A DNA stretch of 64,000 bases from an uncultured Candidatus Rokubacteria bacterium (lineage in GTDB: Bacteria; Methylomirabilota; Methylomirabilia; Rokubacteriales; CSP1-6): the NCBI GenBank assembly GCA_963789955.1, contig CAWBMV010000022.1, forward strand, positions 1-64,000. The letters are read 5' to 3'. The notes under the pieces were generated by a model. That model was not told the DNA's origin. It was given only the letters and a program-made list of their open reading frames with translations, and did no database searches. Of this stretch, positions 50,225 through 57,865 are shown piece by piece. Made by a program: the position numbers and the translations under genes. How positions within the stretch are numbered: position 1 is the first letter of the stretch; every line of letters begins with the position of its first letter.

Positions 50225-51322
50225 GTGGAGTCGAGGCCCGAGCCGCGATTCGATTGGTTCATTCCCATCGACGGAGACGGCGCGCACATCGGAACGTGGC
50301 GCGCCGAGCGGCCGCCGACGTTCGACTACCTGCGCCAGGTCGTGGAGACGGCCGAGGCCGAAGGATTCTACTCGCTCCTGATCCCGACGCGGTTCGCGAA
50401 CGGGCTCTTCGGCGAGACGGCGCCGCTGGCGGAGACGTGGACGACGGTGACGGCGCTGGCGGCGGTCACCCGCCGCATCCGGTTCCTGGTGGCGATCCGG
50501 CCGGGATTCATCTCGACCGGCTTGTTCGCCCAGATGGCGGCGGCGCTCGATCAGATCAGCGGCGGGCGGCTCGACATCAACGTGGTGCCCGGCGGGATCC
50601 AGGGTGACTTCGAGCGGCTCGGCGTCACGATCGACCACGACAAGCGTTACGAGCAGGGCGAAGAGTTCATCGCCGCCTTGCGCGCGCTCTGGGCGAAGCC
50701 GGAGCCCGTGGTGTTCGAGGGGAGCACGGTGCGGCTGAAGGGCGCGGTCGTGTCGCCCGGACCGGTGGCGGGCGCACCGAGGTTCTACGTCGGCGGCGCC
50801 TCGCCGCGGGCGCTCGAATTCGCGGCGGCCGGCGCCGAAGTGTACCTGGCGTGGATCCAGCCGCTCGACGAGATCGCCAAGCTGCTGGACCGTGTGCGGT
50901 CGGCGTACGGCGCCAGGGGCCGCCGCCCGGTGTTCGGGCTGCGCACGCACCTGGTCGTGCGCGCGACCGAGGCTCAGGCCTGGGAAGCGGCCGAGGAGCT
51001 GATGTCGCGGGTCGACGAGCGGGTGGTGGCGCAGCGGCAGGCCGCGTTCGCCGGGACCCCGATGGTGGGCCAGCAGGCGCAGCTCCGCGCCGAGCTCCGC
51101 GAGCGGTCACCGCGCCTCTGGAACGGGATCTCGAAGGTGCGCGTCAATCTCGGGACGGCGATCGTCGGCGACCCCAAGCAGGTGACGGAGGAGCTCGCCG
51201 CGTACTGGCGCCTGGGCATCGACGAGTTCATCCTGTCGGGGTTCCCCCACGTCGAGGAATGCCGGCGAGTGGCGTCGGAGGTGCTGCCGGGCCTCCGCGC
51301 GGCGATCGAGCGGGAGCGTTGA
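50225..51322 (+). CDS. LLM-class flavin-dependent monooxygenase, alkanesulfonate monooxygenase (SsuD)-like
   Basis: Motifs WFIP..GDG, GFYSLLIPT, FLVAIRPG, DQISGGRL.IN.V.G, GTAIVG.P and GIDEFILSG.PH.EE. Confidence 0.85.
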   Translation: MESRPEPRFDWFIPIDGDGAHIGTWRAERPPTFDYLRQVVETAEAEGFYSLLIPTRFANGLFGETAPLAETWTTVTALAAVTRRIRFLVAIRPGFISTGLFAQMAAALDQISGGRLDINVVPGGIQGDFERLGVTIDHDKRYEQGEEFIAALRALWAKPEPVVFEGSTVRLKGAVVSPGPVAGAPRFYVGGASPRALEFAAAGAEVYLAWIQPLDEIAKLLDRVRSAYGARGRRPVFGLRTHLVVRATEAQAWEAAEELMSRVDERVVAQRQAAFAGTPMVGQQAQLRAELRERSPRLWNGISKVRVNLGTAIVGDPKQVTEELAAYWRLGIDEFILSGFPHVEECRRVASEVLPGLRAAIERER

Positions 51323-51323
51323 G

Positions 51324-51851
51324 ATGATCACCGACATCGAATCCTATCTGCGCTTCTTCGACAGCGTCCGGCGGCGAACCGAGCGCGACATCGCCGCGCT
51401 TCCGGCGGCCGCCGCAACGTGGCAGCCGCCCGCGGCGAGCGGCGAGGCGGGCTGGGGCATCGGCCAGCTCGTGGGCCACATCGGGGCCACTCGTCTTTAC
51501 TTCGCCAGCGCCTACCGCGGCGAAGGCTGGATCCTGGCGGAGCCCGACATCGATCGCGCGAGCCAGCGCACGTGGGTGCCGTGGCTCGAGGCGTCGGCCG
51601 ACCGATTCGTCACCCTGCTTCGCGATACGCCGGCGGAATGGCTCTCGCGGCGGATCGAGATGATCGACACGCCCGGCACGCTTCCGGGATGGCGCCTTCT
51701 GATGATGATGCTCGAGCACGAGGTGCACCATCGTTCGCAGATCGACACCTACGCCGGCCTCCTGGGCTGGCCGGTGCCTCAGATCTTCGAGCGAACGTTC
51801 GAGAGCATCGCCGCGCTTCAACCCGAGCAGCGCGCTCGTCACCCGCGCTGA
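51324..51851 (+). CDS. DinB family protein
   Basis: Metal-binding His pattern IGQLVGHI and EHEVHHRSQI..Y. Confidence 0.85.
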   Translation: MITDIESYLRFFDSVRRRTERDIAALPAAAATWQPPAASGEAGWGIGQLVGHIGATRLYFASAYRGEGWILAEPDIDRASQRTWVPWLEASADRFVTLLRDTPAEWLSRRIEMIDTPGTLPGWRLLMMMLEHEVHHRSQIDTYAGLLGWPVPQIFERTFESIAALQPEQRARHPR

Positions 51852-51981: not shown

Positions 51982-52915
51982 ATGACGACCACGGCGTCCG
52001 GGGCGAAGGCAGCGTTCGCGGCCGACTACGACGCGCCGATTCCCTATATGCAGCGGACGCGCGACTACTATCAGGTCCTCGGCTTCAACGCCGTATCGCT
52101 GGGCCCACTTCGTCGAGGTTCCGTTCACGCCGCTGCGGATGCCCCTCGACCGGGCGCGGGTCGCGTTGATCACGACGGCGGCACCGTTTCAGCCGGGCGT
52201 GGGCGATCAGGGCCCGGGGGCGGCGTACAACGCGGCGGCCAAGTTCTATCAGGTCTACTCGATTGCGGCCGACACCGTGCCCGATCTCCGGATCTCGCAC
52301 GTCGGCTACGACCGACTGCACACGACGGCGGCGGACATCAATACGTACCTGCCGCTGGCGCAGATGAAGGCAGCGGCCGCCGCGGGACGGTTCGGCTCGC
52401 TGGCGCCGCGGCTTCACGGAGCGCCGACGAACCGGAGCCACCGGGTGACGATCGAGACCGACACCCCGGAGCTCTTGCGGCGCTGTCGCGAGGACGGAGT
52501 CGACGCCGCCGTCCTCGTCCCGAGCTGACCCGTGTGTCACCAGACCGTGAGTCTGGCGGCGCGGTACCTGGAGGAGAACGGGATCTCCACGGTGATCATG
52601 GGGTGCGCCAAGGACATCGTCGAGTACTGCGGCGTGCCGCGGTTCCTCTTCAGCGATTTCCCGCTGGGCAATTCGGCCGGCCGGCCGTTCGACCGCGAGT
52701 CCCAGGCGCAGACGCTCGAGCTCGCGCTGCGAGTCCTCGAGAGCGCGCCGGGCGCACGCACGACGGTGCAGTCGCCGCTCCGCTGGAGCGAGGACGCCTC
52801 CTGGAAGTGCGACTATCTCGACCTGACGAAGCTCTCCCCTGACAAGATCGCCGAGCGCAAGAAGGAGTTCGACGAGGTGAAATCGATCGCGCGGGCGAAG
52901 CGCGAGGCTTCATGA
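51982..52915 (+). CDS. Glycine/sarcosine/betaine reductase selenoprotein B (GrdB/PrdB)-like protein with UxxC; UGA 52526-52528; frameshift near 52090
   Basis: PIPYMQRTRDYY, then RWAHF..PFTPL..PL..ARVALITTA, DGVDAAVLVPS-UGA-PVCHQTVSLAARYLEENGISTV, VPR and DFPLG. The ORFs on each side of the UGA share one frame. Confidence 0.85.
52526..52556 (+). promoter_or_regulatory. Candidate SECIS element of the GrdB-like gene
   Basis: UGA, 11 nt, then stem CCAGAC (52540-52545) / loop CGTGA / GTCTGG (52551-52556). Confidence 0.7.
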
Positions 52916-54106
52916 GCAAGCCGTTCTCCGGCGTCCGCATCCTCGACTTCACCCGCTATCTCGCCGGGCCATACGGCACCTACCAGCTGGCGCTCCTGGG
53001 CGCCGACGTCGTGAAGATCGAGTCGCACGAAGGCGACGACACGCGCAATCAGCTCGCCGACCGCACGTGGGCGGAGCGGAAGATGGCGCCGTCCTTTCTC
53101 GCGGTGAACGGCAACAAGCGCAGCATCACCCTCGATCTCCGGAAGCCCGAGGCCGTGACGATCGTCAAGAAGCTCGCCGCCACCGCCGACGTCGTGTGGG
53201 AAAACTTCCGCGGCGGCGTCATGGAGCGCCTGGGGCTCGGCTACGAGGCGCTCTCCGCGAGTGAACCCGCGACTGATCTACTGCTCGGTCTCCGGCTTCG
53301 GTCAGACCGGACCCGAGCGGACGACCGCCGCCTTCGACGGCAAGCTCCAGGCGATGTCGGGCATCATGTCGATCACCGGCGAGCCGGCGCACGGCCCGAC
53401 CCGCGCCGGGTTCGCCATCTGCGACACGATCGGCGGCATGACGGCGGCCCTGGCGGTGTCCAGCGCGCTCTATCAGCGCACCCACACCGGACGCGGTCAG
53501 CTCGTCGACGTCGCGATGCTGGACGCGGCGCTCGCCTTCATCCCCGGGACGGTGTCCGAATACACCGTGGCGGGCATCGAGGCGCGGCAGCTCGGCAACG
53601 GCTCCGTGAGCCGCAAGCCGACCGCGAGCCGGTTCCGCGCGCGCGGCGGCTACCTGGTGCTGGCGGTGCTCACCGAGAAGCAGTTCGCGGGCCTCATGAA
53701 CACGCTCGGGCGCGCCGACGCGCTCGCGGATCCACGCTTCAAGGATTGGGCGGCGCGGACGGCGAACGAGCCGGCGTTGCGCGAGATCATCGAAGCGGCG
53801 CTCGCGGCCGACGATCCCAAGAGCTGGGAGGCGCGCCTCACGGCCGCCGACGTGCCGTGCGGGTCCATCTGGAAGATCGACGAGATCGTCAAGCATCCGC
53901 AGCTCGAGCACCGCGACGTGCTGCAGACGATCGACTCGCGCTACGGACCGATGCGGCTGGTCGGCGCCGGATTCCGGCTCGAGCACGGTAGTCCCGGGCT
54001 CGATCGAGAGCCGCCGACCCTGGGCGAGCACACCGACGAGATCCTGAAGGAAGCCGGGTACGCGGCCGAGGAGATCGAGCGGCTGCGGCGCGAAGCGGTC
54101 ATCTGA
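52912..54106 (+). CDS. CoA-transferase family III (CaiB/BaiF); frameshift near 53260
   Basis: GVRILDF..YLAGP, LGADVVKIE, NGNKRSITLDL and ENFR.G, then NPRLIYCSVSGFGQTGP, catalytic-Asp region ICD and PPTLGEHT. Confidence 0.9.
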
Positions 54107-54108
54107 TC

Positions 54109-54288
54109 GTGGCTCAAAAACCCGGTCTCGGCCTGATGATGGCGGGCGCGCTGATCGCGTTCGCCGGATTCTGCATCGTGCTGGTGAGGGTCTTCGAGGT
54201 GCCCGACTACGGCGTCTTGCTGGTGGTGGGGATTGGGCTGTTCGCGCTGGGAGTGGTACGCCGCCTCACCGGCAGCGGTCGCGAGTAG
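54109..54288 (+). CDS. Small two-helix membrane protein (59 aa; not in the ORF track)
   Basis: GTG 2 nt after the CoA-transferase stop. Translation: MAQKPGLGLMMAGALIAFAGFCIVLVRVFEVPDYGVLLVVGIGLFALGVVRRLTGSGRE. Confidence 0.7.
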   Translation: MAQKPGLGLMMAGALIAFAGFCIVLVRVFEVPDYGVLLVVGIGLFALGVVRRLTGSGRE

Positions 54289-54297
54289 CGCGCGAGC

Positions 54298-54418
54298 GGG
54301 CTGCTGAAAAGGGCCCATCTGCTTCGTTGGCGACTTCGGCCCTCCCTGCGGCGTATGCGGCATACGCCTCAGTCGGGCCTCAGCCGCCGCCTCGCATCTG
54401 GACCCTTTTGAGCAGCCC
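54298..54418. mobile_element. MITE-like / interspersed palindromic element, 121 bp
   Basis: The 25-bp terminal inverted repeats match 21/25 (GGGCTGCTGAAAAGGGCCCATCTGC versus the reverse complement of GCATCTGGACCCTTTTGAGCAGCCC). Central palindrome GGCGTATGC-G-GCATACGCC. No transposase. Confidence 0.7.
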
Positions 54419-54504
54419 CTCAGCCGGCATCACCCTTCAGCCACGATCAGAAGAGAATCAGGACGCCAGAAGAAAGCAGGACGCGACGACTTCGCCGGCG
54501 CCGG

Positions 54505-56449: not shown

Positions 56450-56907
56450 GCGGAGTCGGGGTGCCGGTCTCGTCGCCGCGCTGGTGGTCGTGGTCGCCCT
56501 CGGCGCCGCGATCTCGCTGACCGAGCTCTTCGTCGCCCAGGCGATATCGCCCGACCGCGATCCGCCTGATCGGTGCCCTCGTGCTGCTGATCGCCGTCTC
56601 TCGCGTCCGCGCGATCGTCCAGGGCTTCCGTCGAGCGTCGGCCGGCGTGGGGCGTCGACGAGACGGGTGAGGGCGGGTCGGACGGGCGGGCCACCGATGC
56701 GCGCGCGACGCGCTTCGACGACGAGATCAGGTTCAGTGCGCGGAGCCAGTCGTACTTCGAGCATCTGCTGTGGCCGCGGCTCGTCGCGCTCGCGCGCAGC
56801 CGAGGCGGCTCGCCCGATACGCTCGAGAAGCCTCCGGGACGGACCTTCGGCCGCGGTCCGTCGCTCGCCGCGCTGGCCCGCGTCATCGCGTCGCTGGAGG
56901 CGCGCCG

Positions 56908-56911
<4 letters not shown>
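56430..56911 (+). CDS. Small membrane-anchored hypothetical protein of the MoxR operon; frameshifted
   Basis: Hydrophobic N-terminus. The C-terminal part ([31 protein letters not shown]) ends at TGA 56911, overlapping the moxR ATG. The frame changes internally. Confidence 0.55.

Positions 56912-57865
<954 letters not shown>

Follow-up and report, generated by a model that had tools for sequence, protein, structure and literature searches.

Enzymes of the GrdB type use a selenocysteine that attacks an activated alpha-carbon, and amine substrates need a Schiff base for this chemistry, as set out in the covered part of PMC10838667. For omega-class glutathione transferases (GSTs) acting on S-phenacyl glutathione, the covered part of PMC3621891 describes a reductive cleavage that is mediated by a thiol and takes place at the position alpha to a carbonyl. 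Marine catalogues list the subfamily considered here as 'proline reductase PrdB', with 42 genes in one of them (PMC1088965, in the parts covered) and 235 Sec and 110 Cys sequences in the GOS survey, where the 'PrdB' family is among the top three selenoprotein families in many samples (PMC2398784, likewise in the parts covered). In the covered supplements of these two papers the motif PVCHQ appears 14 and 86 times, respectively, and one GOS entry agrees with the protein described below in segment after segment, including the position of Sec. Judged by such matches, the selenoprotein itself is not new, as the same subfamily with Sec at this position stands in the 2005 and 2008 marine catalogues. 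In the part covered of a 2026 review (PMC13188914), clostridial enzymes are the sole ones mentioned, along with the operons grdA-grdB and prdB-prdC. The Cys forms are named 'glycine/sarcosine/betaine reductase selenoprotein B family protein' by NCBI. No enzyme assay was found in the literature for any member of this PrdB-like family, and in the literature found the family is known only by the name of an anaerobic enzyme, the partners of which it lacks.

We analysed a stretch of DNA of 64,000 nucleotides from a soil bacterium, referred to here as the window. The closest named records are Rokubacteria/Methylomirabilota metagenome-assembled genomes (MAGs). The features of the locus are as follows.

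51982..52915, + strand: gene for a PrdB-like (Pfam GRDB) selenoprotein of 310 aa, broken by a surplus base at 52090
52526-52528, + strand: TGA codon within the frame, giving the selenocysteine of U-P-V-C-H; TGA or a Cys codon in related loci
52535-52537, + strand: second Cys codon of U-x-x-C
52540..52556, + strand: SECIS-type hairpin with a 6-bp stem and a 5-nt loop, 11 nt past the UGA, supported by stem conservation
52912..54106, + strand: gene for a family III (CaiB/BaiF) CoA-transferase of 397 aa, with a surplus base at about 53260
53423-53425, + strand: putative catalytic Asp codon of the CoA-transferase (Asp171, invariant in 27 sequences)
54109..54288, + strand: 59-aa hydrophobic ORF, a genus-level neighbour outside the conserved system

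An earlier note on this DNA had described two ORFs in one frame separated by a single TGA, a hairpin behind it, an ATGA overlap and a 59-aa ORF. All of these are present in the sequence: ORFs 52139-52528 and 52532-52915 share their frame with a single TGA between them, and read-through gives VLVPS-U-PVCHQTV. What had been overlooked are two single-base frameshifts. The start ATG at 51982 is in a different frame from the TGA, with a frame switch at about 52090, and a second frame switch is located at about 53260, inside the CoA-transferase gene. The frame is unbroken at the first site in 27 of the 28 close orthologues and at the second site in all 28. Furthermore, the base at 52090 is absent from the contigs of all four public runs, and one base at 53260/53261 is absent from the contigs of three of them, the fourth having no cover there. 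As the close orthologues are continuous and the public contigs lack these bases, both are probably assembly errors, and the intact PrdB-like gene has 310 codons. We considered and rejected a pseudogene and a programmed frameshift, because the surplus bases are missing in relatives and in public contigs and because a nearby AAA gene downstream carries similar frame breaks. Parts of the locus are covered by contigs from two RNA libraries, which cannot show transcription. No sigma-70 promoter, terminator or Rfam match was found at the locus.

The protein has a weak match to the GRDB domain (28.9 bits against a Pfam cut-off of 22). It falls below the PrdB profile TIGR04483 (91.7 bits, cut-off 300), and the protein B profiles of glycine, sarcosine and betaine reductase give 24-34 bits against cut-offs of 65-800, matching the C-terminal half only. 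Its identity to a real PrdB is 29% over 230 aa, with U-x-x-C-H aligned and with the segments S-H-x-x-Y-D and D-I-N-x-x-x-P-L common to both. An AlphaFold2 model, calculated for the intact L014 orthologue with a 63-row alignment, shows a confident alpha/beta domain (pLDDT 92, pTM 0.90) with a helical arm at the N-terminus and a long helix at the C-terminus. Helix 183-198 begins at U-x-x-C. Sequence searches of the PDB found no relative, and a Foldseek search of the model returned none at E <= 0.001. The best fold match (Z 8.8, rmsd 4.7, 143 aligned) was to LacI-type domains, tied with SDRs, and is that of a generic alpha/beta fold. An atlas search gave the family itself, APH clusters and nothing else, and no solved relative of the model showing a CoA site was found. 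An N-terminal motif and several arginines are conserved in the family; these could be candidate CoA binders.

The TGA at 52526-52528 is almost certainly a genuine selenocysteine codon, as the earlier note had it. In 80 related loci from Rokubacteria and Alphaproteobacteria, the codon at this site is TGA in 56 and TGC or TGT in 24, and P0123, the best 50%-cluster representative, also has Cys there. Because these 24 loci and P0123 carry Cys, the reading of the two ORFs as separate proteins was rejected. The presence of the hairpin goes with that of the TGA: a perfect 6-bp stem is found in 50 of the 56 TGA genes versus 2 of the 24 Cys genes, and the identical hairpin 17-mer in 48 versus none. The rare Ser codon AGT occurs in 51 of the 56 TGA genes, compared with 5 of 112 Ser codons in neighbouring genes of the window. 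The folding energy of the hairpin alone is within the chance range (z -1.37), and the hairpin has no Rfam match at the gathering score. A search of 61 genomes with the PrdB-like gene gave matches in 43, and each best match of 29 relatives (E < 1e-70) holds one TGA. The Sec machinery is present as well, the genome encoding tRNA-Sec (selC), selA, selB and selD, with selC, selA and selB side by side on C1. Desertibaculum subflavum (L098) is an example of a cultured carrier of the Sec form.

The stop of the PrdB-like gene overlaps the start of the CoA-transferase gene in an ATGA (52912-52915). The transferase matches PF02515 (Frc/CaiB/BbsF clan) over its full length and has a conserved Asp aligned with the active-site position of family III CoA-transferases, which is the putative catalytic residue. 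Its own subfamily is unnamed, as it scores below every NCBIfam equivalog cut-off (best score 281 versus 750). The earlier note had asked whether the transferase is a conserved neighbour, and it is: all 28 close orthologues have it immediately downstream. It also adjoins the gene in 41 of 42 loci of the Rokubacteria type and in 9 of 38 from Alphaproteobacteria, two of the nine being broken; this set of 80 overlaps the 28 close orthologues. Across Rokubacteria, the two genes stay coupled through ATGA or lie a few bases apart, despite differing flanks. Both genes occur in the same 30 of the 61 genomes, a co-occurrence that is not independent since the genes adjoin; in G035 the best match is a 52% paralogue.

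The link to CoA enzymes extends beyond this neighbour. In a Pseudomonadota sample the family was found in 14 of 401 genomes, and a transferase stands next to the gene in 8 of the 13 best loci, which are mostly of one clade. A second Pseudomonadota sample was largely a repeat of the first. We then compiled 40 further loci, namely 20 of 24 places from one set and 20 places from another, leaving out places already covered, the weakest matches and ligase-only matches. A family III transferase on the same strand within two genes is present in 14 of these 40 loci, which come from Burkholderiales-like and alphaproteobacterial genomes. In a control, such a transferase lies near only 8 of 250 genes of six other catabolic families (gap < 1.5 kb); the control was drawn from the genome under study, a different one from those of the 40 loci, and kin among them are not independent. 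The partner transferases form five lineages, mostly 27-37% (up to 44%) identical to one another. Hence, the pairing arose or was replaced repeatedly.

Fusions point in the same direction. Among 31 longer homologues, 18 are C-terminal fusions to an acyl-CoA ligase, and two more were found in addition. The ligase fusions are of two groups, with ligase parts 24-34% identical, and they lie in separate clades with support of 100 and 95 in a quick tree that was calculated without 26 Rokubacteria rows and the partial P0296 and whose backbone is unresolved. In G175, an unfused, 50%-identical orthologue of the second ligase is located directly upstream of the PrdB-like gene. In L269 and L272, the order is PrdB-like gene, glutaredoxin-like gene, transferase, with overlapping stops and starts. 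A metagenome scan with the ligase fusion gave 80 ligase-only loci, none with a PrdB-like gene. Four apparent PrdB-CaiB fusions (P0285, P0298, P0299 and P0302) were not counted, because their PrdB part is out of frame or partial and they are thus probably sequencing artefacts of adjacent genes. A family I CoA-transferase found three to four genes downstream in 12 of the 80 loci was also not taken as independent support, since it is confined to one clade and is present with or without the family III gene. Taken together, comparison of sequences gives good support to a CoA association that is conserved and wider than one neighbour. As far as the literature was searched it is unpublished: no paper linking the family to CoA-transferases or ligases was found, most subscription papers being outside the coverage.

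The CoA link is not obligatory, since 26 of the 40 sampled Pseudomonadota loci have no adjacent transferase and since an orthologue of this transferase is absent genome-wide (E <= 1e-110) in 28 of 38 alphaproteobacterial carriers. In four genomes the transferase orthologue is present and unlinked. Four clusters have an APH/methylthioribose-kinase-like (MtnK-like) domain as their fusion partner instead, and in two annotated plasmid loci no CoA enzyme adjoins the PrdB-like gene. Because neighbours other than the CoA enzymes differ between loci, they indicate no substrate. The redox and sulfur genes among them comprise the glutaredoxin of L269 and L272, a carboxymuconolactone-decarboxylase/AhpD-like gene (L274), rhodaneses (L269, L284 and L293), a GST (L271) and a cysteine-dioxygenase-like gene that follows an unlinked transferase orthologue (L122). 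The scattered rhodanese, GST and thiol-dioxygenase-like genes lean weakly to a sulfur substrate. The genome encodes a WCGPC thioredoxin.

Two suggestions about the immediate surroundings did not survive these neighbour counts. The 59-aa membrane ORF, which had been included in the system, is a single-copy gene in the genome with no Pfam or NCBIfam match, and it is present in only 6 of the 80 loci and 7 of the 28 close orthologues. The upstream SsuD-like and DinB genes had been read as a hint at the substrate; an SsuD-like orthologue is found in 6 of the 80 loci, all of them close kin, plus one other luciferase-like match. The membrane ORF and the SsuD-like and DinB genes were therefore dropped as parts of the system.

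As the earlier note had claimed for the window, the PrdB-like gene appears independent of the Stickland partners. A pyruvoyl-type subunit (PF09338, of the PrdA/GrdE type), GrdA and GrdC (GrdC-beta) were not found in the genome, which is 87% complete, and the GrdA and GrdC controls were positive. This absence is weak alone, because of the incompleteness and because PF09338 is encoded by 12 of 16 same-genus relatives and GrdA by 4 of 5 tested relatives. Where examined, these genes of the relatives belong to canonical clusters apart from the PrdB-like gene, which include a long GrdB of their own. PF09338 is missing in 10 of the 30 carriers among the 61 genomes. The firm evidence for an orphan enzyme comes from sequence searches of the Pseudomonadota carriers, in which none of 21 gave a PF09338 match and none of 35 a GrdA match; G046 served as a positive control for both.

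By comparison across these genomes, the two genes form a module in which a predicted Sec enzyme of PrdB fold, without a pyruvoyl subunit or GrdA, is tied to makers of CoA thioesters. The CoA-enzyme neighbours and fusions of its relatives suggest bond breaking in CoA-activated acids rather than proline or glycine reduction, and the PrdB-like enzyme probably acts on a CoA thioester. As thioesters make the alpha-carbon reactive and stabilise the enolate, the simplest scheme has four steps. In the first, the CoA-transferase, replaced elsewhere by an ATP-dependent ligase, would turn an alpha-substituted acid X-CH(R)-COO- into its CoA thioester, X being a thioether or thiol sulfur, a sulfonium, an ammonium or amine nitrogen, or a halide. 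The thioester would take over the role of the pyruvoyl Schiff base of Stickland reductases in activating the alpha-carbon. In the second step, the selenolate (a thiolate in the Cys forms) would displace X or attack it. In the third, the second Cys of U-x-x-C would attack Se. This would release the thioester enolate and thus yield R-CH2-CO-SCoA, which is acetyl-CoA where R = H, with the enzyme now in a selenenyl-sulfide form. Finally, a glutaredoxin or thioredoxin would re-reduce this form. CoA would be catalytic in such a cycle, because the transferase can hand it from the product to the next substrate. Reductive alpha-cleavage exactly as drawn, as a two-gene module with the CoA-transferase, is a possibility that we place a little short of an even chance, and any one named substrate would be a poor guess.

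The order of events could also be reversed. In that case, Sec would attack a free substrate that is already activated, such as a betaine or a sulfonium acetate, and the enzyme would give off an acid or acyl group, which the transferase or ligase would then activate or salvage. The same gene pairing would result, and betaine-type GrdB systems need no pyruvoyl group (grdI, in the covered part of PMC10838667). However, on chemical grounds a carboxymethyl-selenoether of a free acid would be poorly released without GrdA and GrdC, whereas a thioester enolate is releasable, and a common acid product, e.g. acetate, would make a dedicated fused activating enzyme needless. We therefore regard this order as unlikely. 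The earlier note had likewise let the CoA-transferase handle the acyl product; as ATP-dependent ligases replace the transferase in the fusions, the comparative evidence favours CoA activation of the substrate ahead of the selenoenzyme.

About equally unlikely is an oxidoreductase that repairs thiols or acts on disulfides in CoA-related sulfur chemistry and breaks no C-X bond at the alpha-carbon. Here the U/C-x-x-C motif would reduce mixed disulfides or persulfides that contain CoA or a mercapto-acyl-CoA, or strip S-adducts from CoA. The scattered redox and sulfur neighbours (L269, L271, L272, L274, L284, L293 and L122) could be read in this way, and UxxC is listed as a thiol-redox motif in Table 3 of PMC1088965, among the parts covered. 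Each of these neighbours is, however, rare and inconsistent, and the scaffold is that of PrdB and not of thioredoxin, with S-H-x-x-Y-D and D-I-N-x-x-x-P-L shared with real PrdB.

The CoA enzymes could, in principle, be hitchhikers, with one ancestral pair partly lost, the remaining cases due to catabolic islands rich in acyl-CoA genes, and a selenoenzyme that has nothing to do with CoA. The 26 of 40 Pseudomonadota loci that lack a transferase, the kinase fusion and the two plasmid loci agree with this explanation, but five transferase lineages, two separate ligase fusions, the 8 of 250 found for other catabolic families and a tight coupling kept across Rokubacteria though the flanks differ make it improbable. 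Finally, a true subunit of proline, glycine, sarcosine or betaine reductase with partners elsewhere in the genome is largely refuted and has almost no probability left, since the PF09338 and GrdA genes of relatives, which together with the 87% completeness speak for it, adjoin long GrdB genes of their own where examined, 10 of 30 carriers in the 61 genomes and all 21 Pseudomonadota carriers lack PF09338, and the PrdB score is 92 bits against a cut-off of 300.

Returning to a selenoenzyme that acts on a CoA thioester, we tentatively propose, with distinctly less than even confidence in the whole, that the 'proline reductase' of the ocean and of soil Rokubacteria, which is among their most abundant selenoprotein families, may be a non-Stickland reductase that uses a CoA thioester in place of the pyruvoyl cofactor and that, together with a transferase or ligase and a glutaredoxin, strips alpha-substituents. 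Because no transporter or regulator is shared between the loci, scavenging or metabolite clean-up is suggested over a dedicated catabolic pathway. If true, this would be a compact, CoA-catalytic route by which alpha-substituted acids lose S-, N- or halogen substituents, with thioether, sulfonium or betaine acetates and carboxymethyl adducts as candidates, and the acyl-CoA would return to central metabolism. It would add a new mode of substrate activation to GrdB-type chemistry and a turnover route for substituted acids in soil and sea. The CoA link makes the long-open function of the family directly testable: expression of the natural Cys-form ligase fusions and of the Bradyrhizobium gene pair needs no Sec machinery, and the substrate would be revealed by the ligase or transferase.

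The closest known system is the UxxC family of the marine 'PrdB' papers (PMC1088965 and PMC2398784), which is the same subfamily, with the GRDB domain, the U-P-V-C-H-Q motif and matching sequence on either side of it. Its name there is that of the clostridial enzyme, and in the parts covered the papers give neither gene context nor an assay and make no mention of links to a CoA-transferase, ligase or glutaredoxin or of a missing pyruvoyl subunit. D-proline reductase PrdB of Stickland clostridia has a core of similar length, with U-x-x-C-H aligned at 29% identity. In comparison with it, the PrdB-like protein has in addition an N-terminal arm, conserved and ~45 aa long, and a helix at the C-terminus. 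It has no PrdA-type subunit and is found in Rokubacteria and Pseudomonadota of soil and water.

GrdB, GrdF, GrdH and the fluoroacetate-reducing FarB, as described in the covered part of PMC10838667, share the GRDB domain and a Sec placed for attack on the alpha-carbon. Unlike GrdB, GrdF and GrdH, whose protein B has about 430 aa, the PrdB-like protein is without a roughly 200-aa N-terminal part. Furthermore, GrdE, GrdA and GrdC were not found in this genome, which therefore offers no acetyl-phosphate route. The omega-class S-(phenacyl)glutathione reductase (PMC3621891, in the part covered) has an unrelated fold, and its substrate is a ketone and not a CoA thioester. The analogy is thus purely chemical: in that enzyme, an active-site thiol strips a substituent from the alpha position and is then re-reduced.

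The source genome encodes a second PrdB-like selenoprotein, with the motif T-U-P-N-C-T-H, a long C-terminal extension and a hairpin of its own. It is about 35% identical to the main PrdB-like protein and represents a separate subfamily that is widespread in the genus and shows no consistent CoA neighbour. Distant selenocysteine paralogues lie at two further loci, in an operon with a gene of the Asp/Glu/hydantoin-racemase family and a family III transferase, which at L274 is then followed by an AhpD/CMD-like gene. Other homologues occur in different settings: four protein clusters (P0273-P0276) are fusions of the PrdB-like domain with a C-terminal APH/methylthioribose-kinase-like domain, and one locus (L255) carries a single same-strand run of genes.

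G000 (source genome), C1:590922-591917 (L008): second PrdB-like selenoprotein
L273:3554-6782 and L274: distant selenocysteine paralogues
L255:7922-12495: ligase, PrdB-like, UPF0261 (Tm-1-like) and PEP-hydrolase-like TIM-barrel genes

The SelD gene of the source genome has its own in-frame TGA (C-A-G-U, contig C6, ~164400), and U-P-x-C is found in four thioredoxin/peroxiredoxin/DsbA-like frames (contigs C6, C15, C22 and C34). Hence, the selenoproteome of this genome is sizeable.

Within the window, the operon is flanked as follows.

50225-51851: SsuD-like monooxygenase and DinB-family gene
54299-54425: palindromic intergenic element, 127 nt, separating the operon from a convergent DHDPS-like gene

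The monooxygenase scores 302 bits, below the cut-off of 510-518; it and the DinB-family gene are conserved as a pair in close kin only. The palindromic element is REP/MITE-like; the genome carries 10 copies, of which 8 measure at least 90 nt, and the element has very high depth in public contigs. Further downstream, the AAA-type gene at 56770-57860 changes frame twice relative to its relatives, a further indication that this assembly contains indel errors.

Canonical-looking glycine-reductase genes are encoded by many Rokubacteria relatives (for example, G013:C119:4273-11072, G046:C8:16575-22235, G027:C216 and G038); none of the 20 literature matches listed, out of 105, was a Rokubacteria paper. 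The pyruvoyl-type subunit (PF09338) is present in 30 of the 61 genomes, frequently in two to three copies each, and the relatives tested were positive for selenocysteine-containing GrdA (4/5) and for GrdC-beta (4/4).
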